A DNA stretch of 32,000 nt from Alkalilimnicola ehrlichii MLHE-1 (GCF_000014785.1 NC_008340.1:120001-152000); one strand, 5' to 3'; shown: positions 6,658 to 22,432, counted from the first letter of the stretch. Notes: a model not told the origin generated them from the sequence alone. Translations and numbers: made by a program.

Positions 6658-6690
6658 TGGCGCCCTCCTGAAGTCTTGTAAGTGTTTTGT

Positions 6691-7692
6691 TTACCGGCCT
6701 CGCAATGATCGTCTTATTCGGTCCTTTAATCCGGCTTGATCAAGAAACCAGGAGAGGCCTTCGGAAAGTGTCAGGCTGGATAAGTTTAGCACTACGGCCG
6801 CAATGGTTTTGGGAGTTAGCTTAAGCCAATATATATCGCCACAGACTCTGCAATGGCTTCCGAAGAATGCTTTGTGAGGGGCGTCTCCCTCGCAGAAATC
6901 GAAGTATTGAAAGCGTCCCTCTTTAAACAAATTATCTAGTGCTAGCCATTGTAATATCGTTCCTGGAGAGAGAGTTGCGGCGTTGGGTTTGTACCCCAAG
7001 AAACGGTATCGTAAAACGCCATCCTGAGCTGGGCAGTATAGGTAAGCAACAGGATCGCCAGAATGAAAAAGGAGAAAACCCCTTACTTGGTCATTCTGGG
7101 CTAAAGAAATGGCGGCATCGTAGAATTCCTGGCTATCAGGCAAAGCAGCACCTAGCAGTCGCTTTTGGTAACTGACGTCCGCCACTCCTCTCGCCAACTC
7201 AAGGAATCTTCTTATTTCATTCTCCGTCTTGTAGCACCGCCATTCCAACTCTCCCTCAGATGCCTTTTCGAACTTACGAATCTTTCGGCGAATGCTTTGT
7301 CGCGACTTTCCGGAAAAGGTGTGCAGGTAGGTTTCCCAGCCTTGAGATAAGTCAATGTAGTGTCGCCGATAAACTCGTGGGACGTACCGGATAAAACCTT
7401 TGTCAAGACTAAGGCGTGGGAACTCAGGTGCTTCCGGACTGGACCGTGCCAAAAATCCATGCGGACCCATTCTCTCCGGGTTTCTTCTTCCTTTTTTGTC
7501 GTGAATAAAAAGCGACTTATCTACGGATAATCGTAGCGTGATGCCGCCGAGGGTAAATCCGGCGAAGTGAACCGGTAGTCGAATTCTCTCTACAGGCGGG
7601 CTATTTCTCATTGCGGGGAACCGTTGCGTTGTTTTGTTCGAAATTGTTGAGTGATTGGGGTGAATTATAGCAGGTGGTTGCGATGTTTTCAT
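6691..7692 (-). CDS. GNAT-fold acyltransferase, CelD/BcsL- or FemAB-like (paralogue type of 4848-6005)
   Basis: ORF 6691-7722 (TTG). First ATG at 7692. SRQSIRRKIRKFEK, GDPVAYLYCPAQDGVLRYRFLGYKP, SPGTILQWLALDNLFKEGRFQYFDFCEGDAPHK. Confidence 0.65.
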   Translation of the reverse strand: MKTSQPPAIIHPNHSTISNKTTQRFPAMRNSPPVERIRLPVHFAGFTLGGITLRLSVDKSLFIHDKKGRRNPERMGPHGFLARSSPEAPEFPRLSLDKGFIRYVPRVYRRHYIDLSQGWETYLHTFSGKSRQSIRRKIRKFEKASEGELEWRCYKTENEIRRFLELARGVADVSYQKRLLGAALPDSQEFYDAAISLAQNDQVRGFLLFHSGDPVAYLYCPAQDGVLRYRFLGYKPNAATLSPGTILQWLALDNLFKEGRFQYFDFCEGDAPHKAFFGSHCRVCGDIYWLKLTPKTIAAVVLNLSSLTLSEGLSWFLDQAGLKDRIRRSLRGR

Positions 7693-7749
7693 TGCATGCC
7701 CGCATCCATTTCGGCGAAGCAATTGTGATCCTGGTGCGTTACAAAAAAG

Positions 7750-8769
7750 CTAGGTATTTTTTGCTCCAATGGCTTTCTTTCCCAAGATACGAATAACATT
7801 GGGTAGAATAAATGCGGCCCCGTAGGGGTCATGCCGTAGAGTGGATCTCACGCAGCCCCAATTCAATGGCTTTCGATGGCGAATATTATGCAATATTGTG
7901 GCCACAAACGCTCTACGAAACTCAGAAAGCTCACGGCACACATGACCTCTTTGTCGTGACGTTAAGTCGATTTCGTTCAGGATCATCGTGGACATTTTTA
8001 TGTAGCTAGAAGTAAGTCGTAGGTGTCCTTCTGTCTGCCATCCGGACTTGTCCAGCACATTTACTCCCTCTCCTTCTTCAGCGTAAACCTTTGGAGAGAA
8101 CGCTATGCTTTTTAGCCTTTTGCTTAGCCGCAATTTAAACAGCCGATCTTCTCCCTGAAATAGATGTTCCGGGAAGCGTAACGAGGGAAATTTGTCTATT
8201 CTATACGCCATGGCCGTCGCGCTTACTAAGTTGCTCCGGAAGACCATCAGGTCAAAAAAGTCGCCCCGAAAATTATAAATATCTCGCTTCTGGTTTATTA
8301 GGGTGTGCTTGTGTGGCTCGATGTTTCGAGAAGAGTCCTTGCTCCAGGAAAAACGGGGTTTACTACCTTTTCTTCTTGTGTTACCAATAAAGAGTTCGCA
8401 TTCTCTTTGCAGCGCCCAGACGGCGTCTGGAAGAAATTGCTCGACCCAACAATCATCCGAGTCTAGGAAAGTCGCGAATCGTGTGCCGCCGGAAACATGG
8501 TCCAGTCCTGTGTTTCGTGCAGCGGCAGGCCCTGAGTTTTTTTGACGTATAATGGTCAAACTGATGCCGTCATGGAGGTCGCCGACCTCGTCCTGAGCCG
8601 GTATCGGAGAACCATCATCTACGATGATGATTAACGGGTCGACATCACCTTTGGTATCCAGCACTGAGCGCACACACTGCCGCAACAGGCCTGGCTGCCG
8701 CTGGAAATAAGGTATGATGACAGCAATTTTCCGGTCGGTCGTAGCCAATTCGGTTCTCCGGGATAGCAT
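7750..8769 (-). CDS. family-2 (GT-A) glycosyltransferase
   Basis: 339 aa. IAVIIPYFQR, IIIVDDGSP, AARNTGLDH, FLDSDD (DxD). Confidence 0.85.
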   Translation of the reverse strand: MLSRRTELATTDRKIAVIIPYFQRQPGLLRQCVRSVLDTKGDVDPLIIIVDDGSPIPAQDEVGDLHDGISLTIIRQKNSGPAAARNTGLDHVSGGTRFATFLDSDDCWVEQFLPDAVWALQRECELFIGNTRRKGSKPRFSWSKDSSRNIEPHKHTLINQKRDIYNFRGDFFDLMVFRSNLVSATAMAYRIDKFPSLRFPEHLFQGEDRLFKLRLSKRLKSIAFSPKVYAEEGEGVNVLDKSGWQTEGHLRLTSSYIKMSTMILNEIDLTSRQRGHVCRELSEFRRAFVATILHNIRHRKPLNWGCVRSTLRHDPYGAAFILPNVIRILGKKAIGAKNT

Positions 8770-8915
8770 CGGTTCTGAGTTATAGTGTTTTGGGTAAACG
8801 AGCTCCTGAGGTGGAGTCCTTCTCAGGAATTATGATGCAGCATCGGATGTATCTCCACCGGTATCGTGGCTGCCGCAACTTTTCGCGATGAGTGAGCGGC
8901 AACCGGAGCGTGCTC

Positions 8916-8930
8916 CCCAAGTTGGACAGT
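8916..8930. repeat. 15-nt exact copy of the IS1634-element terminal-IR core
   Basis: CCCAAGTTGGACAGT at 8916-8930 equals the reverse complement of 28107-28121 (right IR of the IS1634 element). Confidence 0.6.
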
Positions 8931-9008
8931 CGCTCACCGCGTAAGGTCGGGGGAGTCTAGATGTCGGGTCCCGAGGGATGCCGCACCTGCCGCAGGAATA
9001 AATGAGGA

Positions 9009-9016: not shown

Positions 9017-10431
9017 GGCACCTTCTCGGATTGTGTGGGTTAGCCCTGATTACGGTCATGCCGCCGCCACCCTGGATGTTGTGGTGTAGGGGGAGCTTGG
9101 CAGTTGGGTGAGTTTGCCGCCGATCAGGTAGGTCATGGTGATCAGGTTGCGCACGGTGCGGTAGCCGCGGGTGCGAGCCTTGGCGGCCTGAATCCGTCCG
9201 TTGAGGGCCTCGACGCCGCCGTTGTTCAGCCGCGAGTCGAAGGCGTTGAGGATGCCATCCCAGTGGGCCTTGATCGTGAGCGCCAGGCGTTTGAACGGCG
9301 CGAGCCGGCAGCGCCGTGCCCAGCTATACCAGCGCTGGAGTTCTGCCTCGGCGATCTCGCGTGGCGGCGCCTGGGCGTAGAGCTCGCGCAGGGCATCCTT
9401 GAGCCGCCAGGCGCGGGCGGTCTTGAGTTGCGTGCGCGAGAGCGTGTGGAAGTCCTGGAGTTGGCGGGCGGTCCAGCGCCAGCCGTCTTTCAGCCACACC
9501 CAGCGGGTGTGTTTGAGGATCGGCCGCTCCCGGACCTCGGCGCGGCGTACCTGGTCAACGGCGGCGTTGGCGAGCTGGATGACGTGAAAGCCATCGAACG
9601 TGACCGCAGCCGCCGGCAGGTAGCGGCTCACCCCGGCGATGTAGGCTTTCGACATATCGATACAGGCGGCGGTAACGGCCTCGGGCTCACCGCCGTGGGC
9701 CCGCAGGTCCTCGGCAAAGCGCGCCACGGTATGCTGATCGCGCCCCGGGCAGGCGTAGAGCACGCGCCGGCGCTCAAGGTCGTGGAAGATGCTGATGTAG
9801 TGGTGACCACGCCGGGCGGCGGTCTCGTCGACCCCCACCGTCGTGACCTCGCTGAAGTCCTCCTGCGCCCGGGCGGCATCGACGTAGTGATGCAGGATGC
9901 GCCAGAGCGCGTCATCACCCACGCCGAGATGGCGGGCCACCACCTGGACCGGCATCTGCGCGCACAGTGTCACCACCATCGCCTCAAAGAGTTCGGTGAA
10001 GCCGCTGCCCGGGCGGGCCCAAGGCACCGCCACTTGCGTTGTCTTCCCGCAGCTACCGCAGCGCACCCGTGGCACTGGGGCATGGATATAGGCGCGGTGC
10101 TCGAAAAAGTGCAGGTGCTGCCAGCTACGCCGGCGGCTGTCGTGGACCGGCTGATCCGCCGCCCCGCAGGCCGGGCAGGCAAAGCGCGCCCCGCGGGCAA
10201 AGCCCACCTCCAGGTCGATCTGTTTGGCGTCCGGGTCAAAGTCCACCGAAACCACCTCCCAAGGCGGCGCCAGACCCAGGGCGGCGGAAAACAGACTGAA
10301 CTCAGACGCGTTTGGGGCCATGGTGTCGGTACTCCGGTGGCAGTGATCCTGAGTGCACAACATATCGGTTACCGCCGCCTACCGGCTACCCGCCGGCACC
10401 CCCTGGCACCCACACAGATCGCGAAGGGACC
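9017..10431 (-). mobile_element. ISL3-family insertion sequence, apparently intact (1415 bp)
   Basis: 24-bp IRs GGCACCTTCTCGGATTGTGTGGGT (9017-9040) and the reverse complement of 10408-10431, GGTCCCTTCGCGATCTGTGTGGGT (18/24 identical). Flanked by the 8-bp direct repeat TGGCTTTG. Single transposase ORF. Confidence 0.9.
9056..10321 (-). CDS. ISL3-family transposase
   Basis: ORF 9056-10363, ATG at 10321. N-terminal zinc-finger region FACPACGA...RVRCGSCGKT, then a DDE region (GVDETAARRGHHYISIF...). Typical ISL3 layout. Confidence 0.9.
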   Translation of the reverse strand: MAPNASEFSLFSAALGLAPPWEVVSVDFDPDAKQIDLEVGFARGARFACPACGAADQPVHDSRRRSWQHLHFFEHRAYIHAPVPRVRCGSCGKTTQVAVPWARPGSGFTELFEAMVVTLCAQMPVQVVARHLGVGDDALWRILHHYVDAARAQEDFSEVTTVGVDETAARRGHHYISIFHDLERRRVLYACPGRDQHTVARFAEDLRAHGGEPEAVTAACIDMSKAYIAGVSRYLPAAAVTFDGFHVIQLANAAVDQVRRAEVRERPILKHTRWVWLKDGWRWTARQLQDFHTLSRTQLKTARAWRLKDALRELYAQAPPREIAEAELQRWYSWARRCRLAPFKRLALTIKAHWDGILNAFDSRLNNGGVEALNGRIQAAKARTRGYRTVRNLITMTYLIGGKLTQLPSSPYTTTSRVAAA

Positions 10432-10439: not shown

Positions 10440-11645
10440 CTGCCAATCCTTGAGCGCCTGGATGGGCGTTCGCTGGCGCAACGCCTTCTGTGGAATGTAA
10501 TGATTATACAGGTGGTAGTAGCGTTTGAGCGTAGTTTCGAGGTCCGCGCGGGAGTCGAACTGGTGCGTGGCCAGGACTTCGCTGATCCGCCCGTTGAACC
10601 GCTCGACCATGCCGTTGGTCTGAGGGCGGCGCACCGGTGAGAGCCGATGCTCGATACCGGTCTCGGCACAGAACCGGTCGAAGGTATGCTCGCCACTGGG
10701 CTGACGGTGCTTGTGCTGGAGCCGGTCGGTGAACGCCTTGTCGTTATCGGTGAGCAGCTTGCGGATGCGAAACGGCGCCTTGGCGCGGACGCTTTTGAGA
10801 AAGGCCGTGGCAGTACGGGCAGACTTATGGGCCTTGAACTCGACGTAGACCCAGCGCGTGGCCCGATCAATGGCCACAAACAGATACCGGCGCCGATCCT
10901 CGTCCGGCATCTGTGGAAGGTACTTGATGTCGATATGAACCTAGCCCGGCTCGTAGGCCTTGAACGGCTTGGCTTTGACCTCTTCCGAGGGCTCGGTGGG
11001 GGTCAGATCGGCCAACCGCGAGACACCGTTACGGCGCAGGCACCGATCCAGTGCCGAGCGCGAGAGCCGCGGGTGGATGAACTCTCGGACGACCGCCAGC
11101 AGGTCATCCAGTGGCAGCCGCAGCGTCCGGCGCAGCTCCACGACGAACGCTTCCTGGGCCGGGGAGAGCGTAGCCAGCAGGTTCTTGCGCGTATGGGGAC
11201 GGTCGTAGACATCCTCGCGCTTGCGCCAGTGGCGTACCGTGCTCACCGAGATGCCCAGCTCCTCTCGCGCTAGCCAGTAATGATAACTCCTTGGCGCGAT
11301 GGGATTATCCGAGATCCTACACGTACCCATGGACCACGGGCCGTGGAGCGCCACCTTGCGCAAAGTCCCAAGCATGGCTCGTGATCCCAGTATCGATAGA
11401 GATGCGCATGGTCGCCGACCGATGCCTGTCATGGGGGCGATGGCTTGATGCCGATCTGCATTTTGACTACGTATGCTAGCATGCTCGAGGGTTGCGCTAA
11501 GCCATTGAAACATGTGGTGGCACCATGTTCCTTGCATCCCAGAGGCTGGCGGCAGAAATCTCACGCAGTCCAGTCCAACCCGCGCTATCCTTGAGATAGG
11601 CTTCCCTAGGCCCAAACTTTCTACCGATGCGATGGTCCACCTCAG

Positions 11646-13046
11646 ATGCGTGACATCCTCCTTGCACTTATATTCGCTGGCTTAGTGCCTGTAATCCTGC
11701 GTCATGCCTGGGTGGGGATACCCACGCTGTTCTGGGTGAGCTTATTTACGCCGCAGCTCCAGACCTGGACCTTTATGCACGGTTTTCCGGCGGCGATGCT
11801 GTTCACAGTAGTCACCCTGGCTGCCATCGCGTTTTCTAAGGATCGAAAACCGTTTCCTTGGACGAGGGAAACGGTCATGTTGCTGATTCTCGCAGCATAC
11901 TTCGCAATGACCAGCCACTTCGCCGTGAACTCCAGTGGCGCGTGGGATTTCTGGGTGCACTTTATGAAGATCCTGTTGGTGACCTTCCTCACGCCGATAC
12001 TGATCCACGGTGAGCGACGTATCCTGATCACGCTCTTGGTGATCACCGGGGCGCTGGCGTTCTTTGGCCTGAAGGGAGGGATCTTCGCGGTTAACACCGG
12101 AGGGGCCCACATGGTCCTTGGCCCATCGGGCTCCTACCTCTCCGGGAATACCTATATCGGGCTGGCGATGCTCATGGTATTGCCGCTTATTCTAACCAGC
12201 GCGCGACTGTTCCATCGACAATGGGTGGATTTTAGCATTCCACTTATCAATCGGTTTGCTGTCCCCATCGGTTGGGCCGGGTACGCTGTGTTTTGGTTCA
12301 CCTGTGCAGCCATACTGGCGACCCACTCCCGGGGGGCCTTCGTCGGAATGGTGGTGATCACGCCATTTTTATTCTTGCACATGAGAAAAAAGTGGCTTTT
12401 GGTGCTGGTAGCCTTTATCGGAGTTGGCGTGATTGGAGTGACGGCGCCGGAGCCGTTGGTCGAGCGCTGGCAAACGATAAAGACGTACGAAGAAGACCAA
12501 TCGGCTATGCAGCGAATCCAGAGTTGGGGTGTGGCGTGGAATATGGCCATGGAGCGACCCCTGACGGGTATGGGGTTCAGAAATACCGCTTTGGGTTACG
12601 ATTGGTGGATTACCTATGCGGAGTTTGAAGGCGGCTGGCGGCATGTTCTGTCACCGCACAGCATTTATTTCGGGTTGCTGGGACAGCACGGATTTGGCGG
12701 GCTGGCCGTGTATCTTTTTCTCGGAGCGTTTACATTTTTGACGTTGAATCGGGTGCGGCGGACCGCGAAGCGAAGAACTGGGAAGATCTGGTTGTCGGAG
12801 TATGCATGGGCCTTGCAGGTTGGCTTGGCCGGATATTTCATTGCAGGGATATTTTTGGACGTGGCCTACTTTAACCTCTATTATGCGTTCATAGCCATGT
12901 CAGTGATTATGCGGCGTGAGCTCGAGGAGGCGCCCAAACCGGCGGAAGCGACCGTGCCGACGCCAGCTCAGCCCTTGCCCCAGGATACTCGACCAAGCCT
13001 CTCCAATCCTTCCCTGGGGGCCAGATCGGGGGTGGAGCGCAGGTGA
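11646..13046 (+). CDS. Wzy / O-antigen-ligase-like polytopic membrane protein (exosortase-A-associated putative O-glycosylation ligase type)
   Basis: 466 aa with many hydrophobic helices. N-terminus MRDILLALIFAGLVPVILRHAWVGI and the central ATHSRGAFVG loop region resemble the Wzy_C/O-antigen ligase family. Pro-rich C-terminal tail. Confidence 0.8.
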   Translation: MRDILLALIFAGLVPVILRHAWVGIPTLFWVSLFTPQLQTWTFMHGFPAAMLFTVVTLAAIAFSKDRKPFPWTRETVMLLILAAYFAMTSHFAVNSSGAWDFWVHFMKILLVTFLTPILIHGERRILITLLVITGALAFFGLKGGIFAVNTGGAHMVLGPSGSYLSGNTYIGLAMLMVLPLILTSARLFHRQWVDFSIPLINRFAVPIGWAGYAVFWFTCAAILATHSRGAFVGMVVITPFLFLHMRKKWLLVLVAFIGVGVIGVTAPEPLVERWQTIKTYEEDQSAMQRIQSWGVAWNMAMERPLTGMGFRNTALGYDWWITYAEFEGGWRHVLSPHSIYFGLLGQHGFGGLAVYLFLGAFTFLTLNRVRRTAKRRTGKIWLSEYAWALQVGLAGYFIAGIFLDVAYFNLYYAFIAMSVIMRRELEEAPKPAEATVPTPAQPLPQDTRPSLSNPSLGARSGVERR

Positions 13047-14959
13047 ATCCGATGGGTGATGCGCCGGTACTGGCCGCAAGCACCGACCGGGCGGGGCATT
13101 CTGCGTCGCTCGAAGGCCGTTTGCAGCGTCGGCTGGATACCCTGGTGGGGGCGGCGCGTCGCTGCGGCGATCCCCCGGGTCGGCTTTGGGACCCCGTGTT
13201 GCGTGCTGAAACGCCGGCCGAGCACTACGGTCACAACAGTGCTGCGTTGGCCCTGCTGATGCGTGACGGGCCGGAGGGCGCGCAATGGCGTCCCATGGTG
13301 CGTACCTGGATGGCGCTTGAGCGCCGCCAGGTGGGCCACGAGCCGTTCAACCGCTTCCTGCTGTTACTGATGCGGGAGCACTTGTTGGCGACCGGCGCCC
13401 CGGCGGGGGACGGGCTGCCTTGGGAGGAGGCGCTGAACCGCTGCCCGGTAGCCCGCCGCTATCCTTCCAATAACTGGACGTTGCTCGGTGCGCTTTGTCA
13501 CCTGATCGAAGCGCCCGATCACCGCCGAGGCAGGGCGCTGGCCCGCCTTTTGAGCCTGCTCGAGCGTTGGACAACGCCTGCCGGCGGGTTCATCGACTTC
13601 CCCTACCGTCCGGCCCTGCCCCGGTCCGGTGCCACGCCGGTCGCCTATCACCACAAGGCGCTCTTCGTGGCTACCGTGGCCGGCTGCTACGTAACCTCCC
13701 CCGCCCTGGACCGGCATGTGCAACGGATGCTGGGCTGGGTCCGGTTGACTTGGGACGGTGACGGCCATGTTGGGGGCTTCGGGCGCAGTACCCATTCATT
13801 GTTCGGCGACGCCTGCCTGATGGCCAGCCTAGTATTGCTGGGTGTCCTGTCCAGGGAGAACCAGGACGGGGCGTTCGGTGCCATGGCCTCCGGTATCCTG
13901 GAGCGCTGGGCCGGCCAGCAACGCCCCGATGGGCTGTTGATGCTGAACCCGGCGGGACCGACGGCCGGTGGAGCCCCCGCTGGCTGGGACGATTACATGT
14001 ACCTGTCCGTCTACAACGCCTGGACCGCGGCCGTGTTGTCGTGGGCGCTGCACCGTGCCTGGACCGATGCCCGCCCGGACCAGGGGGCGCTTCGCCAGGC
14101 AGCGACGTTTGAGGTGGGCGGCAGGGTTGAAGCCGACGAGGCGGCGGGGCTGATGCGGTGCGCGCCAGAGGACGGTACGGTTGCCCTCATGTCCACCTCT
14201 GGGCAACCGCCTCAAGCGTTCGGGCGGGATTGGGCCGAGCTGCGTTATGCCGGTGCACTGCCGTACCACATGATTCGGGGCGGGACTGTCCTCTGTCCGC
14301 CCCCGGTGCGGGTGCATGCCGATGCGCTGCGGCGGGAACCGTCGCTGGCGGGCTGGACGCCGGTATTCCTTATCGGGGATGAACTCTTTGGGTTGGTGGA
14401 TTTTCAGGACGTCGCCCTGTCCCAAGACGGTGACGACATCACTATTCGCCTCAGCGGACAACCCGTCAGCCTCCTGCGGCCCGAGCCCCGCTCCCTGGGT
14501 CAACGATTGTTCGCCGCAGCCGATTGGCGCCTGGGTGGCCGGATGGGTCGAAATCGGGCGCTGCGGCGGCCGCGCGCCACTGGCGTGAGTGGCTCGGTGT
14601 GCTTCACGTTCCATCGGTCTCGCTGCGCCGTTTCCCAGGAACTCGTCATCCGGCACCGCTGTGATGCGGAAGTGCACTATCTCAATCCGGGCGGCCACGC
14701 GCTGATGACGGATGCCCTGCCTCTCAAGCGGGCGCTGGTCCAGAGTCCGTCGGAGAGTGACCCATCGGCGTCCGAAGTATCGCTCGATGTCTCCACCCTG
14801 CTGTCCGCGCGACCGGATGCGTCTATCCCCCATGCCATGGGTTTCAGTGCGCCGCCGACCCTGCTTCGGAAAGGGGGCTACAGACACCGGCTGTACCTGG
14901 ATTGGGGGGATCATGGACTACCCTGCAAGGGTGCCGCCGGCTTGGATAAGGGAGAGTGA
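13043..14959 (+). CDS. hypothetical 638-aa cytoplasmic protein (possibly alpha/alpha-toroid, heparinase II/III-like; unassigned)
   Basis: The GTG start overlaps the upstream stop (GTGA). Alternative ATG 13052 follows AGGTG. Coding-like composition versus the R/P/G-rich antisense ORF 13829-14914. No signal peptide or TM segment seen. Confidence 0.7.
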   Translation: MNPMGDAPVLAASTDRAGHSASLEGRLQRRLDTLVGAARRCGDPPGRLWDPVLRAETPAEHYGHNSAALALLMRDGPEGAQWRPMVRTWMALERRQVGHEPFNRFLLLLMREHLLATGAPAGDGLPWEEALNRCPVARRYPSNNWTLLGALCHLIEAPDHRRGRALARLLSLLERWTTPAGGFIDFPYRPALPRSGATPVAYHHKALFVATVAGCYVTSPALDRHVQRMLGWVRLTWDGDGHVGGFGRSTHSLFGDACLMASLVLLGVLSRENQDGAFGAMASGILERWAGQQRPDGLLMLNPAGPTAGGAPAGWDDYMYLSVYNAWTAAVLSWALHRAWTDARPDQGALRQAATFEVGGRVEADEAAGLMRCAPEDGTVALMSTSGQPPQAFGRDWAELRYAGALPYHMIRGGTVLCPPPVRVHADALRREPSLAGWTPVFLIGDELFGLVDFQDVALSQDGDDITIRLSGQPVSLLRPEPRSLGQRLFAAADWRLGGRMGRNRALRRPRATGVSGSVCFTFHRSRCAVSQELVIRHRCDAEVHYLNPGGHALMTDALPLKRALVQSPSESDPSASEVSLDVSTLLSARPDASIPHAMGFSAPPTLLRKGGYRHRLYLDWGDHGLPCKGAAGLDKGE

Positions 14960-15907
14960 ATGGCACAAGTACGGGATCATGACAGGGCCTCCGTGGCTGA
15001 GGGGGACGAACGCACTTACGGTGGTGAGCTGCGCCGTCGCTACGCCACCGGCAAGGGCAGTTGGGAGTGGATCAACGCCGAGGAACTGGCGTTGGCCCGC
15101 AATCAGGCGCGCGGTCCGTGGGCGGAGGCGCTGAGCGGGGTGGACTACCCCTGGCTGTGCTGGAATGTGGATGACCAATGGTGCCTAGTGCAGCAGCGCA
15201 TGGTCCGTTCCGTGGGCTGGACGCCCGTGGTGGGGTTCGATCCGCGGGTGGGGCCGCCGCCATTGGTGGAAGGTGCGATATTGATCGACTTCAATGAAGG
15301 GCTGGATCTGCCCACCATGTCCATGATGTTCCCGCTGGAATTCATCTTTCTCTTTGCCCCGCGGCTGGCCTTCTGGCATTCCGACCTGTTGGTGCGGGAA
15401 CCGGTGTTTCGGCAGCTTGCTGACGACTTCCGTGGCCTTGCCGATGGTGAAACGGCCGCGACCGATATCCGGCGTGGGTGGTGGCGACGCCTGATCGGGC
15501 ACCGCGGGCGATATTGGGAACTCATAGGCTGCAATACCCGGGGGGCGAGCCGTGCCCAGTACGAATCGGGATGCGGCTGGTGGCGCCGGCCGACACGTCA
15601 CCCCAACTGCCCGGACGAGGCCGAGCGCGCCGCGCGAAGGCGGTACATGCACGACCATGGGGTGGGCATCCTTATCTGGGAGGAGCGTGCCGGTGGCACG
15701 GTCCATCCCATTCCCTTGCGGTGGGTCGAGGAGGGCCACTGCAGCCGGGTGGGTAACAAGCGCTATCAATCCCGCTCGCCCCGGGATCACCGGAGGGATT
15801 TGAGCAAGGATCTATCCTTTAACTATGACCTGAACGAGGTGGCCTCTCAGTTGGGTTTGTCCCGTTTCCTCACCGGCCCGGGTGTCAACGAGCGGACCGA
15901 GACGTAA
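14960..15907 (+). CDS. hypothetical 315-aa protein, no recognisable family
   Basis: The ATG immediately follows the upstream TGA (0-nt spacer) and is preceded by AAGGGAGAG. Trp/Cys/His/Arg-rich (DYPWLCWNVDDQWC, GCGWWRRPTRHPNCPDE, EEGHCSRVG). Confidence 0.7.
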   Translation: MAQVRDHDRASVAEGDERTYGGELRRRYATGKGSWEWINAEELALARNQARGPWAEALSGVDYPWLCWNVDDQWCLVQQRMVRSVGWTPVVGFDPRVGPPPLVEGAILIDFNEGLDLPTMSMMFPLEFIFLFAPRLAFWHSDLLVREPVFRQLADDFRGLADGETAATDIRRGWWRRLIGHRGRYWELIGCNTRGASRAQYESGCGWWRRPTRHPNCPDEAERAARRRYMHDHGVGILIWEERAGGTVHPIPLRWVEEGHCSRVGNKRYQSRSPRDHRRDLSKDLSFNYDLNEVASQLGLSRFLTGPGVNERTET

Positions 15908-17793
15908 TGGTAGATAATATTCGCGCGATAGTGCGACTGGTTGATCGCCGCGATACCTTTAAGGTGATCGCCCTGTTGATCCTCATGACGGGGACGGCTT
16001 TTCTCAACATGTTTGGGGTGGCCAGCGTCATGCCCTTCCTGTCGGTCCTCGCGGATCCGCAGATGGTCCACGACAACGCCTGGCTATCCGCGGCGTTCGC
16101 CTGGCTGGGCTTTCAGAGCACGGAGGCCTTTCTCTTTTTCCTTGGTGCCAGCGCCTTCACGGTCTTCCTGCTGGGCACAATGACCCAGGCCTTGTCCCAG
16201 TGGGCGATGATCCGCTTTTCCCACGGGCAGCAGTACTGGCTGTCCAAGCGGTTGATGACGGACTACCTGCGGCGCCCCTACAGCTTTTACCTCAACCGAA
16301 ACTCCTCCGACCTGGCGAAGAGTGTCCTCGAGGAGACCCAACAGGCGGTGAACGGGGCTCTGCTGCCAGCGCTTCGCCTGGTGATCCACGGCACCACGGC
16401 TGTGGCCATTATCGTGCTGCTGCTCCTTATCCGACCCTGGCTGGCCCTGGTGACCGCGTCGGTCCTGGGGGTGGTGTATGGCGCCATCTACCTGCTGGCC
16501 CGCCGTTGGCTGGAACGCATTGGCAAGATCCGGCTGCAGGCGAACCGGGCGCGTTTCGCCGCTGCGGGGGAGGCCTTTGCGGGCGCCAAGGAGATTCGCC
16601 TGTTGGGTCGGGAGCGGGCCTACCTGGACCGCTATCAGCGCCCGGCCAGGCAGTTCGCCCACCAACAGGCCAATGTCGCCGTTCTGTCCAACCTGCCCCA
16701 GTATGCGATTGAAGCCGTGGCCTTCGGCGGGGTCATGATTCTGGTCCTCTACCTGATGTCCGGGCCGGGTGGGCTGGCGACGGCCCTGCCGATTATCGGG
16801 GTGTACGCCTTGGCGGCCAAGAAGCTGATCCCCGCCTTCCAGCAGATCTTCGCCTCCATAGCACGCCTGCGCTTCACCATGCCGGCGGTGCACAACCTGC
16901 TGGCCGACCTGGGGGATGGCCAAGGGGTTGTCCCGCTGCCCCTACGCAGCCAAATGGACCGGCCCTTGGTCTGCAATGCCAATATCCGGTTTGAGGGCGT
17001 CACGTTCACCTACCCCGGCGCGCCCCGACCCGCGTTGACGGACCTGAACCTGACGGTGCCGGCGTTCTCCAGCATTGGCCTTGTGGGGTCGTCCGGTGCG
17101 GGGAAAAGCACGCTGGTTGATTTGCTTCTGGGCTTGTTGGAGCCCGCCGCGGGCGCGATCTACGTTGATGGCCAGCGCCTCACTGAAGACAACCTCCGCC
17201 GGTGGCAGGCGACCCTGGGCTATGTGCCGCAGCATATCTTCCTCGCCGACGATTCCGTGGCCGCGAATATCGCCCTCGGCGTGCCGGAAAAGTCGATCGA
17301 CATGGCTGCGGTGGAGCGCGCGGCGAAGATGGCAAACCTCCACGACTTCGTCCTAAGCGAACTACCGCAGGGCTACCAGACCGAGATCGGCGACCGCGGC
17401 CTGCGACTTTCCGGCGGGCAACGCCAGCGGATCGGCATTGCGCGGGCGCTTTACAGGGATCCGTCGGTACTGGTCTTTGATGAGGCAACCAGTGCGCTGG
17501 ACAACGCCACGGAACGGGCTGTGATGGAGGCAGTGCACAACCTCTCGAAGGCGAAGACGGTCATCCTGGTTGCCCATCGGTTGTCCACGGTCGAGCCCTG
17601 TGACCAGATCGCGGTCCTGCATGACGGTCGCCTGGTGGATCAGGGTGCCTGGGATGTGCTTATGCAGGAAAGTGATCACTTCCGGCGCCTGGCGGAGGGA
17701 TTAAAGACGACGGGAGCGTCCGACGATCAACGGAGCGTTAAGCAGGCAATGGCGCAACCGTCCGGACTCCGCTCGGCAGAGCGCGCCAAATAA
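15907..17793 (+). CDS. fused TMD-NBD ABC exporter (MsbA-like half transporter)
   Basis: The start overlaps the upstream stop (TAATG). N-terminal six-helix-type membrane domain. Walker A GSSGAGKST, signature LSGGQRQRIGIARAL, Walker B VLVFDEATSALD. Confidence 0.9.
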   Translation: MVDNIRAIVRLVDRRDTFKVIALLILMTGTAFLNMFGVASVMPFLSVLADPQMVHDNAWLSAAFAWLGFQSTEAFLFFLGASAFTVFLLGTMTQALSQWAMIRFSHGQQYWLSKRLMTDYLRRPYSFYLNRNSSDLAKSVLEETQQAVNGALLPALRLVIHGTTAVAIIVLLLLIRPWLALVTASVLGVVYGAIYLLARRWLERIGKIRLQANRARFAAAGEAFAGAKEIRLLGRERAYLDRYQRPARQFAHQQANVAVLSNLPQYAIEAVAFGGVMILVLYLMSGPGGLATALPIIGVYALAAKKLIPAFQQIFASIARLRFTMPAVHNLLADLGDGQGVVPLPLRSQMDRPLVCNANIRFEGVTFTYPGAPRPALTDLNLTVPAFSSIGLVGSSGAGKSTLVDLLLGLLEPAAGAIYVDGQRLTEDNLRRWQATLGYVPQHIFLADDSVAANIALGVPEKSIDMAAVERAAKMANLHDFVLSELPQGYQTEIGDRGLRLSGGQRQRIGIARALYRDPSVLVFDEATSALDNATERAVMEAVHNLSKAKTVILVAHRLSTVEPCDQIAVLHDGRLVDQGAWDVLMQESDHFRRLAEGLKTTGASDDQRSVKQAMAQPSGLRSAERAK

Positions 17794-17817: not shown

Positions 17818-18822
17818 ATGATCTACCATTTCATCGCCAACCCGGAGATCGTCGACTTCTTCCGCGATACTGCGGGCCACGAGGCTGGCGCCTGCATTGA
17901 CTCGGAGCATCAGCGGTTTACCAACAGTGCGTGGGCATGGATCGCCCAAACGGCGGTGTTGCTGCGGGATGCCGGCCTGCCGGTCTCCATGGGGCCGGAA
18001 CTGCGCCCCGATGCCGTGAACCTGGGTCTGGCGGCCGACCTACGCCGTCTACCCCGGACCGCCGACTGCTTCCGGGTCAGCATCGATGCCGACCAACTGC
18101 GGGCGAGGTGGTCGAATGCCTTCATTGTTCAGAATAAGGCCCAAGCCGGAAGGCGGGCGTACTGGGTGCCCCACTGGCCTCAGCCTGGTCTGCTGAAGCG
18201 GGACCCTGACCGGCAGGGCTTTAAGAACGTGGTGTTTTTCGGGCTGGCAAGGAATCTGGAGCATGAGGAAGCATGGTGGCGGGAGGTTTGCGGCCAATTT
18301 GGCATGCAGTTCTCCGTGCGCCCACCCGCGCAATGGCATGATTATAGGGACGTGGATGTGGCGATCGGCGTAAGGCGATTCGGGAGAAAGAAGTTTAATA
18401 ATAAGCCGCCAACAAAGCTCTTTAACGCCTGGATCGCTGGCTGCGTTTTTATTGGTGGGGCAGACTCTGCCTACTATCAGGTGGGGTCGGCAGGGAAGGA
18501 CTATTTGATTGCTGCAAACGAACGAGCGTTCACGTATCACCTCAAGGCCCTTTCGCAAAGTCCTCAATTGGGTGATCAAATGATATTGGAGGGTGGCAGG
18601 AAAGTGAATCGGTTAGGACTCAGGGAAAGGACGTGCCATCACTGGATGGAGTTGCTTACTAGAGAGATTGGGCCTGAGTTCGAAAGGTGGTCTGAAACCT
18701 CCGAGCCATTTCGTCATCTTCAATTGAGAGCTGGCTTGGTGATGGATGGAGGGGTTCGGTTCCGTAATCGCTGTTGGCGGCGGGCGAAGGACTTTTGCAA
18801 TAGGGCTGCTTTTTGGTCATAA
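17818..18822 (+). CDS. hypothetical protein, possibly glycosyltransferase-like
   Basis: 334 aa. C-terminal block DVDVAIGVRRFG...KPPTKLFNAWIAGCVFIGGADSAY is reminiscent of a nucleotide-sugar-binding half of GT-B enzymes. GC falls along the gene. Weak call. Confidence 0.55.
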   Translation: MIYHFIANPEIVDFFRDTAGHEAGACIDSEHQRFTNSAWAWIAQTAVLLRDAGLPVSMGPELRPDAVNLGLAADLRRLPRTADCFRVSIDADQLRARWSNAFIVQNKAQAGRRAYWVPHWPQPGLLKRDPDRQGFKNVVFFGLARNLEHEEAWWREVCGQFGMQFSVRPPAQWHDYRDVDVAIGVRRFGRKKFNNKPPTKLFNAWIAGCVFIGGADSAYYQVGSAGKDYLIAANERAFTYHLKALSQSPQLGDQMILEGGRKVNRLGLRERTCHHWMELLTREIGPEFERWSETSEPFRHLQLRAGLVMDGGVRFRNRCWRRAKDFCNRAAFWS

Positions 18823-18878: not shown

Positions 18879-19748
18879 ATGACTATCTACTACGACCATT
18901 GTAGAAGTTTCGAAGGTAATAACGCGCCTTTACTGGCATGTGTGACTCCGCTTATACACCCCGATGTGGCCCGGAGTTGGCCATCTGTTTGTGCCCGCCT
19001 CCGTGAGACTGCCGCTTCCGTCCTCTCATCTGATAGCCCAGCCACCCCCATTCGAATGTTTGTCGGTTGTAACTACGAAGCGGAGGTGTCAGACCTTCCA
19101 TCAGGTGTAAAACTTATGCGTTTGCCTCTGCCAGCACCGGACGCGTCAGTTTATGCTAGCACAGGTGATCAGGAGGCAGTGCGACTAGAGTCGGTGAGGT
19201 TGGATAAGGGGGAAAAAGTACTGGCAGCAGCCCGCGAAGCCCGTGATGAAGGCGCTGAATACATTATGTTTCTTGATGCTGATGACCTTTTAAGTAATAG
19301 AATTATAGGGTGGGTTGCCGCGCATCGTGGGGCCCCGGGTTGGGTGATCGACAAGGGTTGGTTGCACCGGCCTAATAGTCCATTTATATATCAACAAGAT
19401 AGGTTTAATAGAGTTTGTGGGAGCTGCCACATTGTGAGAACAGATCTGATACCAGGGCTATCTTCTAAAGCGGAGATGACGGAGGATGAGATAAAGAAGT
19501 ATTTCGGAAGCCACCTACATCTAGCAGACAGGCTATCTTTTGAGGGCCACCATCTAGAAAAGCTTCCTTTCCGTGGTGCTGTCTACCGAGTAGGCCATGG
19601 AAATAATATTTCACGCCGTAAACGCGCCATAGAGTTTTGGGCCCTTCGACGGCATCCTAGCCTTTTTCTCAAGAGAGTAGTAGGGTTTCGACGCCTCTCG
19701 GCTAAATTAATAGAAGAGTTTTCGGTTCCCCCTATAAGTCGGCATTAG
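18879..19748 (+). CDS. putative GT-A-fold glycosyltransferase
   Basis: 289 aa, low GC. YIMFLDADDLLS (DxD-type motif) after an N-terminal Rossmann-like region. Confidence 0.55.
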   Translation: MTIYYDHCRSFEGNNAPLLACVTPLIHPDVARSWPSVCARLRETAASVLSSDSPATPIRMFVGCNYEAEVSDLPSGVKLMRLPLPAPDASVYASTGDQEAVRLESVRLDKGEKVLAAAREARDEGAEYIMFLDADDLLSNRIIGWVAAHRGAPGWVIDKGWLHRPNSPFIYQQDRFNRVCGSCHIVRTDLIPGLSSKAEMTEDEIKKYFGSHLHLADRLSFEGHHLEKLPFRGAVYRVGHGNNISRRKRAIEFWALRRHPSLFLKRVVGFRRLSAKLIEEFSVPPISRH

Positions 19749-19752
19749 GTTT

Positions 19753-20505
19753 CTAATTGACATTATATCCATATCGCTGTGCCAGCTTTATTACTTCATC
19801 CGGGGGCGGTGTGTATGATGGCGCTCTGTGCGCATAGCCCAGTTTTTTATTAGATTTTGGCCCGGGCTCTATTAAGGTATCCGAGATGCCTAGGTGCTCG
19901 ATGACTGTTGGCCAGCAAGTGTCCAAGTCTTCTAGGCGAACTCTAAGATACGGAAGTCTGGCAGCGTTTGCATTAACTTCAATAAGCTTGTTCCACTCGG
20001 CCCAATACCACCAGAGCCTTTCGGCTTCATGCCGATAGGTCCAACAATTGGTATGGGTTTTTAAGAATGCACGATGTTGAAATACATATCTACAACGCCG
20101 GTAAAGCCTCCGAGGGCTAAATCCTAAGTCCTTGATGTAAGTGTATAGGTTTTTCCCATGGGTGGCGTGGACGAGGGGGTTACCACAAAATAATCCAATA
20201 CGACCAAAAGAAGCCACCACGTCTGCGGGATAACGAACCACATGCAAAACAGGTGTGTTGGCCGGGAGCCGGTTTAGAAAGGGGGCTGCATACCATGAAG
20301 ATTCTCCGAAGTCCCCTCGCTCTTTTGGTTTAGGGCCAAAAACAGTAAACTGCTCTTCGTGCTTGCACGCGATCCCAGCTGCGTTTAAGCGATCTGAAAT
20401 GTATTGCGTTCCGGACCGGCCGCAGCCCGTGATCAAGTATCGAATATGAATCAAACCATTGTCCTTTCTTGTCGTGGGCATAGTTGTTGTTTCTGAGCTC
20501 GGCAT
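19753..20505 (-). CDS. sulfotransferase-family protein
   Basis: 250 aa, low GC. YLITGCGRSGTQY resembles the 5'-phosphosulfate-binding loop and VVRYPADVVAS the 3'-phosphate-binding motif of PAPS sulfotransferases. Confidence 0.65.
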   Translation of the reverse strand: MPSSETTTMPTTRKDNGLIHIRYLITGCGRSGTQYISDRLNAAGIACKHEEQFTVFGPKPKERGDFGESSWYAAPFLNRLPANTPVLHVVRYPADVVASFGRIGLFCGNPLVHATHGKNLYTYIKDLGFSPRRLYRRCRYVFQHRAFLKTHTNCWTYRHEAERLWWYWAEWNKLIEVNANAARLPYLRVRLEDLDTCWPTVIEHLGISDTLIEPGPKSNKKLGYAHRAPSYTPPPDEVIKLAQRYGYNVN

Positions 20506-20579
20506 AAGGGTTGTATATTGGGTGGTGCGGTGGCTTTAGGTCTTCCCATGGCTTCCAGTGGCGATGAGCCTGTCTTCCT

Positions 20580-20618
20580 GTTGCAACTAGCGGAACAAGT
20601 AGTGTTGCTGCCAGCAAC
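20580..20618. promoter_or_regulatory. paired GTTGC/GCAAC palindromes in the divergent intergenic region (possible operator)
   Basis: GTTGCAAC (20580-20587) and GTTGCTG-c-CAGCAAC (20604-20618), inside the 325-bp AT-rich spacer between the sulfotransferase and acyl-CoA ligase genes. Confidence 0.3.
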
Positions 20619-20830
20619 CAAGTGACGGGTTCACATGGGGTTATCTCATAGAGCGTGCGTGAAATGCTGGGTTTTAAAGAAGTAAGGGTAGCTGTTCGGC
20701 CGAAGTTTGCATGTCTGGTCGGATGCCTTTGCGAAGTCTGAACTATGATTCTGTAAGTTAAGGTCCACGCTAGCCAGACTAGACGCAAACCAACCGCTAT
20801 GAGGGCGAGAAGGAGAGAGTCGGGCCACCT

Positions 20831-22432
20831 ATGGCTATACCAATTTTGCTTCACGAGACCCTGCTGAGCAGCGCGGGGCGGGCCCCTTCATCACCGGCGG
20901 TCAGCTACCGGGATTCTTCACACGACTATGACACCCTTGCCACTGCCTGCCAAAGCGTGGCCGCAGCGCTGCGCGAATGCGGCCTGCTGCGTCAGGAGCG
21001 GGTGGCCGTCTACCTCGACAAGCGACCCGAGACGGTGCAGGCCTTGTTCGGTGCGGCAATGGCCGGAGGGGTCTTCGTCCCCGTCAATCCGCTGCTGAAG
21101 GCTGACCAGGTCGCCTACATCCTGCGCGACTGCAATGTCCGTATCCTGGTGACCACCGCTGACCGGCTCAAGGCGATCCGCCAGGCGCTGGTCCAGTGCC
21201 CCGACCTGCACACCGTCCTGGTCGTGGGCCGTTCGGACACCCTCGGCGAAGAGGAGCCTCCCTACCGGGTCCACGACTGGTACGACGTGGTCTCTACAGC
21301 AGGGCCGGCTCGGCCGCATCGCGTGATCGACAGCGACATGGCCGCCATCCTCTATACCTCCGGCAGTACCGGTCAGCCCAAGGGGGTGGTGCTCTCCCAC
21401 CGCAATATGGTTGCCGGTGCCCAGAGCGTGGCCAGCTACCTGGACAACCGGCCCGAGGACCACCTGCTGGCCGCACTGCCTTTCAGCTTCGATTACGGCC
21501 TCAGCCAGCTCACGACGGCCTTCTTGACCGGTGCGCAGGTGTCGCTGCTGAACTACCTGCTGCCGCGGGATGTGATCAGAGCGGTGGAAAAGCAGGGAAT
21601 CACCGGCCTGGCGGCGGTCCCCCCATTGTGGATCCAGTTAGCACAGCTGGAGTGGCCGGACGCGGCGCGCAAGACCCTGCGCTACGTGACCAATTCCGGC
21701 GGTGCCATGCCCCTGAAGACCTTGGAGGCGCTCCGGGCGCAACTGCCCGCTACCCGCTTCTACCTGATGTACGGGCTCACCGAGGCCTTCCGCTCGACGT
21801 ACCTGCCGCCGGAGGAGGTGGACCGACGGCCCGATTCCATGGGCAAGGCCATCCCCAATGCAGAGATCAGGGTGGTGCGTGAGGACGGCTCCCCGTGCGC
21901 CCCCGGCGAGCCGGGCGAGCTGGTGCACCGGGGGGCGTTGGTGGCCATGGGCTACTGGAACGACCCGGAACGGACCGCGCAGCGCTTCCGTCCGGCGCCG
22001 GGCCAGCCGGGCGGCTTGCCGCAAAAGGAATTGGCGGTCTGGTCGGGCGATACCGTACGCATGGACGAGGAGGGGTTTCTCTACTTCATCGGTCGACGCG
22101 ATGAGATGATCAAGACCTCGGGTTATCGGGTGAGCCCGAACGAGGTGGAGGAAGCCGTCTATGGCACCGGGCTTGTCGCCGAGGCCGCCGCGCTCGGGGT
22201 GCCGCACCCGGTGCTGGGGCACGGCATCGTTTTGGTCGTGTTGCCGCGCTCCACCGGCGTGACCGCGGAGGAGCTTTTGAATGCCCTGCGGCCCCGGGTA
22301 CCGGCATTCATGTTGCCCGCTCACGTGGAGCTTCGGCAACAACCCCTGCCGCGTAACGCCAATGGCAAGATCGACCGCAAGGGGCTATCCACCGACTTCA
22401 CCGACCTGTTTCAGGAGAACGCTGCACCGTGA
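20831..22432 (+). CDS. acyl-CoA ligase (AMP-forming), exosortase-A-system-associated type
   Basis: 533 aa. ILYTSGSTGQPKGVVLSHRN, YGLTE, SGDTVRMDEEGFLYFIGRRDEMIKTSGYRVSPNEVE, NGKIDRK. Confidence 0.9.
   Translation: MAIPILLHETLLSSAGRAPSSPAVSYRDSSHDYDTLATACQSVAAALRECGLLRQERVAVYLDKRPETVQALFGAAMAGGVFVPVNPLLKADQVAYILRDCNVRILVTTADRLKAIRQALVQCPDLHTVLVVGRSDTLGEEEPPYRVHDWYDVVSTAGPARPHRVIDSDMAAILYTSGSTGQPKGVVLSHRNMVAGAQSVASYLDNRPEDHLLAALPFSFDYGLSQLTTAFLTGAQVSLLNYLLPRDVIRAVEKQGITGLAAVPPLWIQLAQLEWPDAARKTLRYVTNSGGAMPLKTLEALRAQLPATRFYLMYGLTEAFRSTYLPPEEVDRRPDSMGKAIPNAEIRVVREDGSPCAPGEPGELVHRGALVAMGYWNDPERTAQRFRPAPGQPGGLPQKELAVWSGDTVRMDEEGFLYFIGRRDEMIKTSGYRVSPNEVEEAVYGTGLVAEAAALGVPHPVLGHGIVLVVLPRSTGVTAEELLNALRPRVPAFMLPAHVELRQQPLPRNANGKIDRKGLSTDFTDLFQENAAP

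Follow-up and report, generated by a model that had tools for sequence, protein, structure and literature searches.

A predicted PglK-like ABC exporter and two uncharacterised protein families in the exosortase A exopolysaccharide locus of Alkalilimnicola ehrlichii

Introduction

Described exosortase A (XrtA/PEP-CTERM, EpsH) loci, the zooglan and methanolan-type clusters among them, carry genes matching TIGR03097, TIGR03098, TIGR03099 and TIGR03100 together with genes for a PEP-CTERM protein, a deacetylase and FemAB-like acyltransferases (Haft et al. 2006, PMC1569441). The same markers occur in the stretch of DNA analysed here, 32,000 nucleotides (nt) of Alkalilimnicola ehrlichii MLHE-1 (GCF_000014785.1, NC_008340.1:120001-152000; hereafter the window), which is the XrtA/PEP-CTERM exopolysaccharide (EPS) locus of this soda-lake bacterium. 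Our subject is a set of four adjacent open reading frames (ORFs) at positions 11646-17793 of the window, which encode a ligase-like membrane protein (gene 1), two proteins of 638 and 315 amino acids (aa; ORF2 and ORF3) and an ATP-binding cassette (ABC) exporter (gene 4). The locus differs from described XrtA loci in that the ORF2 and ORF3 families have no NCBIfam or Pfam model. The term "ABC" appears nowhere in the text of the founding PEP-CTERM paper (Haft et al. 2006, PMC1569441), and the literature that we searched contained no description of an ABC flippase variant in XrtA loci and no paper joining "exosortase" with "heparinase".

Fused half-transporters of the PglK type are used in O-antigen synthesis in Helicobacter pylori, where the PglK-homologous ABC flippase Wzk works with the WaaL ligase (PMC2841628), and in N-glycosylation in Campylobacter jejuni, where the protein is PglK itself. 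The A. ehrlichii locus is like both in having such a half-transporter, and like the Wzk/WaaL system also in having no Wzx nearby and a Wzy_C protein that would act on the flipped, undecaprenyl-diphosphate-linked glycan. By contrast with H. pylori, the genes here are adjacent and lie inside an XrtA EPS locus, and the Wzy_C protein belongs to TIGR03097 rather than being WaaL; relative to PglK, gene 4 falls under the equivalog cut-off (314 versus 1000 bits) and lacks most of the cavity arginines. The Wzm/Wzt and KpsM/KpsT exporters consist of separate ABC-2 permease and nucleotide-binding domain (NBD) polypeptides, whereas gene 4 encodes a single fused PF00664 protein.

The initial annotation of the four genes had treated the Wzy/ligase and ABC export routes as alternatives and had seen in their coupling a dedicated sub-pathway. 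The opposition of the two routes holds for the two-component Wzm/Wzt and KpsMT exporters. It is inapplicable here, because the gene 4 product is fused and its transmembrane (TM) domain matches PglK. Flippases of this kind work ahead of Wzy_C-type ligases, as Wzk does before WaaL in H. pylori, and with that precedent the combination of an ABC protein with a ligase is not contradictory. We favour, with little more than even confidence, the reading that the four genes are shuffled parts of a lipid-linked glycan pathway in which an ABC flippase replaces Wzx.

Results

Four co-directional genes

The four ORFs lie on the plus strand at 11646-13046 (466 aa), 13043-14959 (638 aa), 14960-15907 (315 aa) and 15907-17793 (628 aa), and an ORF of 334 aa begins 24 nt past the gene 4 stop codon. 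The ORF3 and gene 4 products are 100% identical to proteins of A. ehrlichii MLHE-1. The features of this stretch are as follows.

11646-13046, plus strand: gene 1, Wzy_C-superfamily polytopic membrane protein, exosortase A-associated "putative O-glycosylation ligase" (TIGR03097, Pfam)
13043 (GTG) or 13052 (ATG) to 14959, plus strand: ORF2 with its two start variants, (alpha/alpha)-toroid and beta-sandwich protein
14960-15907, plus strand: ORF3, soluble alpha/beta protein, putative glycosyltransferase with a remote GT-A fold (structural model, Foldseek)
15907-17793, plus strand: gene 4, fused ABC exporter (six-TM domain and NBD), PglK/Wzk-like, putative lipid-linked oligosaccharide flippase (Pfam and PDB matches)
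17818-18822, plus strand: 334-aa ORF, weakly GT-B-like (Glyco_trans_1_2 match weak, E 1e-3, under the cut-off)

The stop/start linkages described in the initial annotation were present at all three junctions. Gene 1 and ORF2 share GTGA at 13043-13046, with ORF2 read from an overlapping GTG start; the TGA of ORF2 is directly followed by the ATG of ORF3 (14957-14962); and ORF3 and gene 4 meet in TAATG (15905-15909). The start of ORF2 is ambiguous: the annotations of two A. ehrlichii genomes use ATG 13052 (635 aa) or a start 75 nt past the ligase stop (612 aa), and neither takes the overlapping GTG, the gap between the two genes being small either way. A 4-nt overlap is also called at the homologous ligase/ORF2 junctions of Halochromatium and of a metagenomic contig (L121). 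Stop/start overlaps are ordinary in the operons of compact bacterial genomes, so the junctions show an operon and nothing unusual. We found no terminator-like site between 17793 and 18966, and the counts of promoter-like and terminator-like sites in the region were within chance, leaving no operon boundary definable. The four ORFs probably form one operon inside the XrtA/PEP-CTERM EPS locus, with a transcription unit that probably extends past 17793 and takes in the 334-aa ORF as a fifth gene. That ORF directly follows ORF3 in four Thioalkalivibrio loci (order ABC, ORF3, 334-aa ORF) and is also present in L121.

The product of gene 1 matches TIGR03097 (PEP_O_lig_1) with 340.8 bits against a cut-off of 188.1, over residues 2-424 of the protein and positions 1-405 of the 408-position profile. 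Pfam assigns it DUF5935 and Wzy_C, and it has nine TM-like segments. Judged by its sequence, the protein is a member of the XrtA-associated ligase-like family and a putative polymerase or ligase; with the exosortase A marker genes nearby, this agrees with the initial annotation, which had called it ligase-like and placed it in an exosortase A locus. Its GC content is 0.56, as against 0.64-0.67 in the next three genes.

A fused exporter whose TM domain matches PglK

Pfam places ABC_membrane (PF00664) and ABC_tran in the single polypeptide encoded by gene 4, and the membrane domain is not of the ABC-2 type. Such a composition marks the protein as a predicted type IV exporter half transporter of the MsbA/PglK class, much as the initial annotation had proposed in calling it MsbA-like. 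The ATPase motifs are intact (Walker A GSSGAGKS, LSGGQ, Walker B-Glu VLVFDE and H-loop AHR). The best NCBIfam models were PglK (NF050066, 314.5 bits), MsbA (307 bits) and HepA (295 bits). When the TM domain was searched alone, PglK was the sole match among 177,635 PDB sequences (1e-14); at full length, the PDB scores were 266 bits for PglK and 215 bits for MsbA. The alignment with PglK covers the TM1-TM2 segment, where 20 residues of gene 4 (vmPF to NawL) align with 20 residues of PglK with several identities. The external helix of PglK, which binds the polyprenyl tail, lies between TM1 and TM2.

Gene 4 has common orthologues (54-85% identity) among the Ectothiorhodospiraceae and Chromatiaceae, and others are found in Azoarcus, Haliea and Halorhodospira. 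We rejected a bacteriocin or type I secretion exporter: gene 4 has no C39 peptidase domain, and there is no membrane-fusion protein among the window ORFs scanned. With no Wzx and no other polytopic candidate in the window, the gene 4 product would most plausibly flip a lipid-linked glycan.

Neighbourhoods and strain comparison

To follow the four genes in other genomes, we used 80 ORF3-anchored loci, 38 ORF2-anchored loci and a set of ABC-anchored loci. Contig L121 carries ligase, ORF2, ORF3 and ABC in identical order and with the same overlaps, and a second A. ehrlichii strain (L081) has the four genes in the same order. All four occur together in three of four Thioalkalivibrio loci, where they are split into two blocks: one strand carries ABC, ORF3 and the 334-aa ORF, and the opposite strand, some kilobases distant, carries the ligase gene followed by ORF2; the available stretch of the fourth locus (L001) contains no ligase or ORF2.

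ORF3 has the ABC and ligase genes as company in these three settings and matches no characterised family, so that the outcome by which the initial annotation would have been refuted did not occur. Across the 80 ORF3-anchored loci, by contrast, the ABC gene was near ORF3 in just 6 and the ligase family in 12, with ORF2 in 3 and the 334-aa ORF in 4; ORF3 stood without the ABC gene in 74 loci and without ORF2 in 77. Its neighbours were GT4 (31 loci), GT2 (21), asparagine-synthase-like (XrtA-type) amidotransferase (16), MOP flippase (12), TIGR03097 (11) and stp1-type glycosyltransferase (8) genes, and 52 of the 80 loci had at least one of these glycan genes or the ABC gene within 8 kb. A MOP flippase and the ABC gene were never found together near ORF3 (0 loci). 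ORF2 was directly downstream of the ligase gene in about 12 of the 38 ORF2-anchored loci and of a deacetylase gene in about 10, with ORF3 or ABC near it in none. Thiorhodococcus has ORF2, GT2 and ABC without ORF3, and Azoarcus and Haliea carry the ABC gene in EPS loci without either orphan; an ABC orthologue lacked ORF3 in three of four further contexts examined. There are two recurrent pairs, ligase-ORF2 and ABC-ORF3, the latter with or without the 334-aa ORF.

Comparison of the two A. ehrlichii strains gave a similar picture. At the DNA level, the ligase gene is 57-77% identical, identity then rises to 93-100% from about 12934 to about 18330, and it drops again thereafter. ORF2, ORF3 and the ABC gene all fall in the high-identity block, as do the 3' tip of the ligase gene and the first half of the 334-aa ORF, the latter within a stretch of 97-100% identity. 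The proteins of ORF2, ORF3 and ABC are 99-100% identical between the strains and the ligase 69%, while the flanks differ. This pattern resembles a serotype-style exchange of alleles, with one breakpoint within the ligase gene and another within the 334-aa ORF. A variable ligase allele beside a constant flippase is what would be expected if the ligase/polymerase is glycan-specific and the flippase tolerant.

Taken together, the neighbourhood counts and the strain comparison indicate that the four genes are parts shuffled independently of one another among XrtA-type loci. Their contiguous arrangement is particular to the Alkalilimnicola lineage, and the genes are no obligate unit or self-contained new system.

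We also observed a near relative of the locus, metagenome contig SR_TP_S13solDRAFT_1000009 (L088), whose adenylation enzyme, dimethylargininase and hydrolase 1 are 96%, 97% and 90% identical, respectively. Its ligase is just 63% and its ORF2 39% identical, and the 8 kb downstream contain neither ORF3 nor an ABC gene. Such divergence means that the cassette varies even among near relatives.

ORF2 has a lyase/epimerase fold

The initial annotation had described both orphans as lacking a signal peptide, a TM helix and any assignable catalytic motif. The first two points held for each of them, and neither has a Pfam or NCBIfam match; for ORF2, the absence of any assignment ended with its structural model, which has the fold of polysaccharide lyases and epimerases. 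A permissive scan of 44 ORF2 relatives yielded one Alginate_lyase match (E 0.049) and five DUF2264 matches (E >= 0.02), nothing usable, and an ORF2-family profile found no match among all PDB sequences at E <= 10. ORF2 stands outside Pfam Hepar_II_III, Hepar_II_III_N, Alginate_lyase and similar sequence families. We collected 160 homologues (38-56% identity), mostly from the Ectothiorhodospiraceae, the Chromatiaceae and the Thauera/Azoarcus group, a few of which carry the UniRef name "heparinase II/III-like".

The AlphaFold2 model of ORF2 (pLDDT 88, pTM 0.90) consists of a helical toroid (23-354) and the strands of a beta-sandwich (362-620). Foldseek against the PDB placed dermatan-sulfate (DS) epimerase 1 at the top (5e-7), followed by PL33, PL17 and PL8 lyases, the leading matches having a probability of 1.00 and TM-scores of 0.40-0.48. 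There were 53 PDB matches at E <= 1e-3, and beyond the full-length top ones these were mostly other (alpha/alpha)-barrel hydrolases and epimerases. Invariant residues sit at successive helix starts of the toroid (H99/N103/R104, Y140/N143/N144, Y202/H203/K205, R248 and Y318/Y324/N325), which is the usual place of the catalytic cleft in this fold. Among them, N143/N144, Y202/H203, R248 and Y324/N325 include candidates for the catalytic Tyr/His pair and the carboxylate-neutralising Asn of such enzymes. ORF2 therefore shares with the heparinase II/III, PL8, PL15, PL17, PL21 and PL33 lyases and with DS-epimerase 1 a toroid followed by an antiparallel beta-sandwich and a toroid lining of Asn, His and Tyr. 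It differs from them in having no profile membership or secretion signal, in lying in a biosynthetic operon, in being fused to a GT2 domain in one genome and in the modest TM-scores.

No signal peptide or TM segment was found in ORF2 or in its family consensus, and the model buries the sole hydrophobic stretch of ORF2 (252-270) as a helix of the toroid. We considered a Tat/Sec signal and rejected it: the N-terminal RR lies in a helix with a block-mean pLDDT of about 95-97, and no hydrophobic region follows. In Halochromatium glycolicum (L083, 8423-11221), an ORF2 homologue continues into a C-terminal GT2 domain to form a 932-aa fusion whose gene shares 4 nt with the ligase gene upstream; the GT2 domain is homologous to the window GT2 at 7750-8769. 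In many ORF2-anchored loci, and also in Thioalkalivibrio, homologues of that GT2 gene adjoin ORF2 or lie close to it. The missing signal peptide and the GT2 fusion suggest a cytoplasmic, biosynthetic role. Enzymes of the UDP-glucose/GDP-mannose dehydrogenase family make activated uronic acids, and a gene of this family is present in a related ORF2 locus (L084). ORF2 is most likely a cytoplasmic biosynthetic enzyme of the lyase/epimerase fold that acts on a uronic acid, with C5-epimerisation a more likely reaction than beta-elimination.

In two Chromatiaceae loci we observed sulfotransferase genes near ORF2 homologues (L083, 12780-14523; L122, 7454-8458; Sulfotransfer_2 and Sulfotransfer_3). 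These genes and the DS-epimerase-like fold hint at sulfated, glycosaminoglycan-like exopolysaccharides.

ORF3 belongs to an isolated family

ORF3 matched no characterised family. Pfam and NCBIfam gave no match, a permissive scan of 52 family members gave nothing meaningful, and an ORF3-family profile found nothing among all PDB sequences at E <= 10. The same profile, run against 1.84 billion representative proteins, gave 137 matches, all of them family members or fragments, with no bridge to a named family. Homologues number more than 779 (45-73% identity), and the genome matches span at least six phyla, including Gamma-, Alpha- and Betaproteobacteria, Acidobacteriota, Methylomirabilota, Gemmatimonadota, Myxococcota and others. 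This conservation across phyla is unusually high for an EPS glycosyltransferase.

ORF3 has no hydrophobic segment, and its predicted structure is an alpha/beta fold (pLDDT 93, pTM 0.90). GT-A-type enzymes make up the top PDB neighbours in Foldseek and most of the named neighbours in a viral library; the former include LARGE1, chondroitin and heparosan synthases, ArnC, glycogenin and RmlA, and the latter GT8, GT17 and Fringe-like proteins. Invariant positions are D94 (after strand 88-93), H140-S-D142 (after strand 135-139), E258-G259-H260 and 11 Trp residues. In GT-A enzymes, the nucleotide-binding Asp and the DxD motif stand at the positions after these core strands. ORF3 bears a remote resemblance to GT-A glycosyltransferases and nucleotidyltransferases (GT2, GT8, LARGE1, chondroitin/heparosan synthases, ArnC, RmlA) in its core alpha/beta sandwich and in its acidic and His residues after the core strands, and differs from them in showing no detectable sequence relationship, in having H-S-D for D-x-D and in its 11 invariant Trp. 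The H-S-D motif may be a variant of DxD. A placement of HSD on DxD taken from an hhalign comparison of ORF3 with the GT2 alignment of neighbouring genes (E 0.43) was set aside and not used as evidence. On the predicted structure, ORF3 tentatively represents a new family of putative transferases that are GT-A-like.

The family most often found directly beside ORF3 is Cys-rich and undescribed, and occurs in Acidobacteriota loci (L019, L033, L035, L036, L041-L043, L048, L053, L055, L057, L059, L060, L062, L072 and L073). One or two members flank the ORF3 homologue on the same strand at gaps of 7 to about 250 nt, mostly below 100 nt. Shorter members are about 615 aa and longer paralogues exist; a representative has an N-terminal hydrophobic segment and no Pfam or NCBIfam match. 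We also considered an ancient ORF2-ORF3 pair through the 615-aa "cluster 3" partner of Acidobacteriota ORF3 and rejected it, as hhalign found that partner family unrelated to ORF2 (E 0.66).

The surrounding locus

Other features of the window that bear on the four genes are listed here.

7750-8769, minus strand: GT2 glycosyltransferase (NCBIfam GT2-type matches; recurrent ORF2 partner in other genomes)
9021-10427, minus strand: complete ISL3 insertion sequence (IS) between the GT2 gene and gene 1 (transposase 345.8 bits)
10941-11615, minus strand: IS481-family transposase fragment (NF033577, 60 bits)
20831-26141, plus strand: exosortase A marker genes, namely acyl-CoA ligase, pyridoxal-phosphate decarboxylase, a low-GC ATP-grasp insert and hydrolase 1 (TIGR models)

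The marker genes scored 792 bits (TIGR03098, acyl-CoA ligase), 635 bits (TIGR03099, decarboxylase) and 298 bits (TIGR03100, hydrolase), each over its cut-off, and lie within 13 kb of the TIGR03097 gene. A PEP-CTERM protein is encoded at 45-977, and the window further encodes wecB, a polysaccharide deacetylase, FemAB-like acyltransferases and GT2 genes. An Rfam scan found no RNA family in the window.

Insertions cut the GT2 gene off from the four genes. The ISL3 element has its transposase at 9056-10363 and 20-nt terminal inverted repeats at 9021-9040 and 10408-10427; the second A. ehrlichii strain carries IS66 in this place. The IS481 fragment spans just positions 21-119 of the 284-position NF033577 profile, and the genome annotation calls no gene there; it lies 30 nt upstream of the ligase gene and is divergent from it. 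An IS1634 transposase gene follows downstream of the four genes. The upstream elements may have displaced the native promoter.

The locus is a mosaic, with a GC content of 45% to 72%. Low-GC cassettes (0.45-0.52 versus 0.64-0.72 elsewhere) at 6000-9000, 18900-20900 and 23900-25100 contain GT2 and FemAB-like genes and the ATP-grasp gene inserted among the XrtA markers, as well as two ORFs that match no family (18879-19748 and 19753-20505). These cassettes were probably acquired horizontally.

Two further observations concern the far side of the window. The GT2 ORF at 30706-31920 (minus strand) has some 60 N-terminal residues that match positions 200-261 of the 266-position TIGR03101 profile (hydrolase 2, exosortase A), which may reflect the fusion of two genes, a TTG too far upstream wrongly called as the start, or what is left of a truncated hydrolase gene. 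Two genes on the border of the EPS locus (28123-30617, minus strand) overlap by 4 nt, one of the dimethylargininase/arginine dihydrolase family and the other for stand-alone amino-acid adenylation (DltA-like). This pair is conserved in L088, and the adenylation gene is conserved in Thioalkalivibrio; the pair may supply an amino-acid substituent of the polymer.

Discussion

From the gene order and junctions, the family and fold assignments, the ATPase motifs and the synteny statistics, we infer the following scheme of substrates, reactions, cytoplasmic location and flippase role. Glycosyltransferases at the cytoplasmic face, including ORF3 and probably the 334-aa protein, would build an undecaprenyl-diphosphate-linked oligosaccharide. 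ORF2, alongside GT2, would modify a uronic-acid residue of this intermediate. The PglK/Wzk-like ABC protein would then flip the finished unit to the periplasmic face in place of Wzx, and the TIGR03097 Wzy_C protein would polymerise the unit or ligate it to an acceptor, either polymer or PEP-CTERM protein. The strain comparison fits such a pathway, in that the ligase/polymerase allele, taken to be structure-specific, varies together with the glycosyltransferase genes of the flanks, and the flippase and both orphans remain constant.

Several findings weigh against this scheme. The initiating phosphoglycosyl transferase, the PCP and OPX proteins and XrtA all lie outside the 32-kb window, and the absence of Wzx and of any other polytopic flippase candidate covers that window only. 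Gene 4 scores under the PglK, MsbA and HepA equivalog cut-offs (for PglK, 314.5 versus 1000 bits). We take the arginines of the pyrophosphate-binding cavity of PglK to be R86, R260, R302 and R309, positions that reportedly come from Perez et al. 2015; gene 4 has G, Q, K and Q there, so that R302 alone is conservatively kept, as Lys. The role of these PglK arginines has been confirmed (PMC11706664). As far as sequence allows a call, gene 4 is PglK-like and not a PglK orthologue. The modelled fold of ORF2 is compatible with a lyase, an epimerase or an inactive binding protein alike. For ORF3, the Foldseek matches are weak (best E 6e-3 in the PDB and 3e-4 in the viral library, TM-scores 0.3-0.39), a canonical DxD is absent with H140-S-D142 there instead, and the hhalign comparison with GT2 (0.43) does not stand out from the two controls, GT4 (0.3) and asparagine synthase (0.81).

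Three other explanations compete with a shuffled lipid-linked pathway. The initial annotation had proposed that the four genes make up a sub-pathway of their own, dedicated to the export or attachment of a lipid-linked or small-molecule substituent, and thereby an undescribed system. The tight junctions speak for it, as do the repetition of order and overlaps in L121, the near-identity of the ORF2-ORF3-ABC block (93-100%) in two strains with different flanks and the presence of all four genes within the same locus in Thioalkalivibrio. In Thioalkalivibrio, however, the genes form two blocks of another order and orientation, and the counts run against co-inheritance: ORF3 and ABC were both away from ORF2 in all 38 ORF2-anchored loci, ORF3 was seldom with either partner, ABC orthologues lacked ORF3 in Thiorhodococcus, Azoarcus and Haliea, and, between strains, the ligase allele was swapped without the other three genes. 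We consider a dedicated unit the least probable of the explanations, even with the four-gene order recurring in L121 and in the second strain. Nearly as far down we would place a different substrate for the ABC protein, such as an acylated amine or peptide from the XrtA-associated enzymes, or a free oligosaccharide or glucan as for ChvA/NdvA. Substrates of type IV exporters are very diverse, gene 4 scores alike against many families, and most of the PglK arginines are not kept; adenylation, decarboxylase, ATP-grasp and hydrolase genes are at hand in the locus, and the Azoarcus orthologue lies beside ATP-grasp genes. This explanation is improbable in view of the TM domain, which matches only PglK among solved structures, the segment N-terminal of TM2 included, of the missing C39 peptidase domain, of the mutual exclusion with MOP flippases near ORF3 and of the constant setting of the gene amid glycosyltransferase genes.

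The third alternative concerns ORF2, which could be a genuine polysaccharide lyase, one that shortens or breaks down the polymer, as AlgL does in alginate synthesis, or recycles failed intermediates. Its structural neighbours are mostly lyases (PL8, PL17 and PL33), some databases call its relatives heparinase or alginate lyase, and a lyase or hydrolase is common in EPS operons. Yet the protein and its family consensus have no signal peptide or TM segment, the Halochromatium homologue is fused to a cytoplasmic GT2, the top structural match is an epimerase and lyase-family sequence profiles fail to detect it, all of which makes a true lyase unlikely.

Beyond the shuffled pathway itself, which remains our preferred reading, the three predictions can be joined into one more specific proposal that we put forward only as a tentative possibility, doubtful as a whole. 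ORF3 would be a new glycosyltransferase family with a GT-A-like fold, H-x-D for DxD and 11 invariant Trp, serving one EPS assembly step in at least six phyla. ORF2 would be the first cytoplasmic enzyme of lyase fold to edit or epimerise a uronic acid on a lipid-linked repeat before flipping. With the PglK-like ABC protein, the two would define an "ABC-flipped, Wzy_C-finished" variant of XrtA-type EPS synthesis, previously unrecognised, in haloalkaliphilic Gammaproteobacteria.

The four-gene "system" follows a logic that is already known, which leaves two enzyme families that are undescribed and a proposed replacement of Wzx by an ABC flippase that had gone unrecognised. What is new lies mainly in the 315-aa family, which is absent from every family database searched. 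This family is the more valuable lead, with hundreds of members, no database model and a confident predicted structure; being widespread, conserved and confidently modelled, it is an easy target for biochemistry and for a new Pfam or CAZy family. The ORF2 family would carry the lyase/epimerase fold into a cytoplasmic, biosynthetic setting. In many bacteria from the environment and from wastewater, XrtA/PEP-CTERM loci drive the formation of flocs and biofilms, yet a function has been assigned to only a minority of the genes in such loci. Should some of these loci use an ABC flippase of the PglK/Wzk type, EPS-cluster finders that require Wzx would overlook them, and the scheme of Wzx/Wzy versus Wzm/Wzt would need a third, hybrid entry for EPS.

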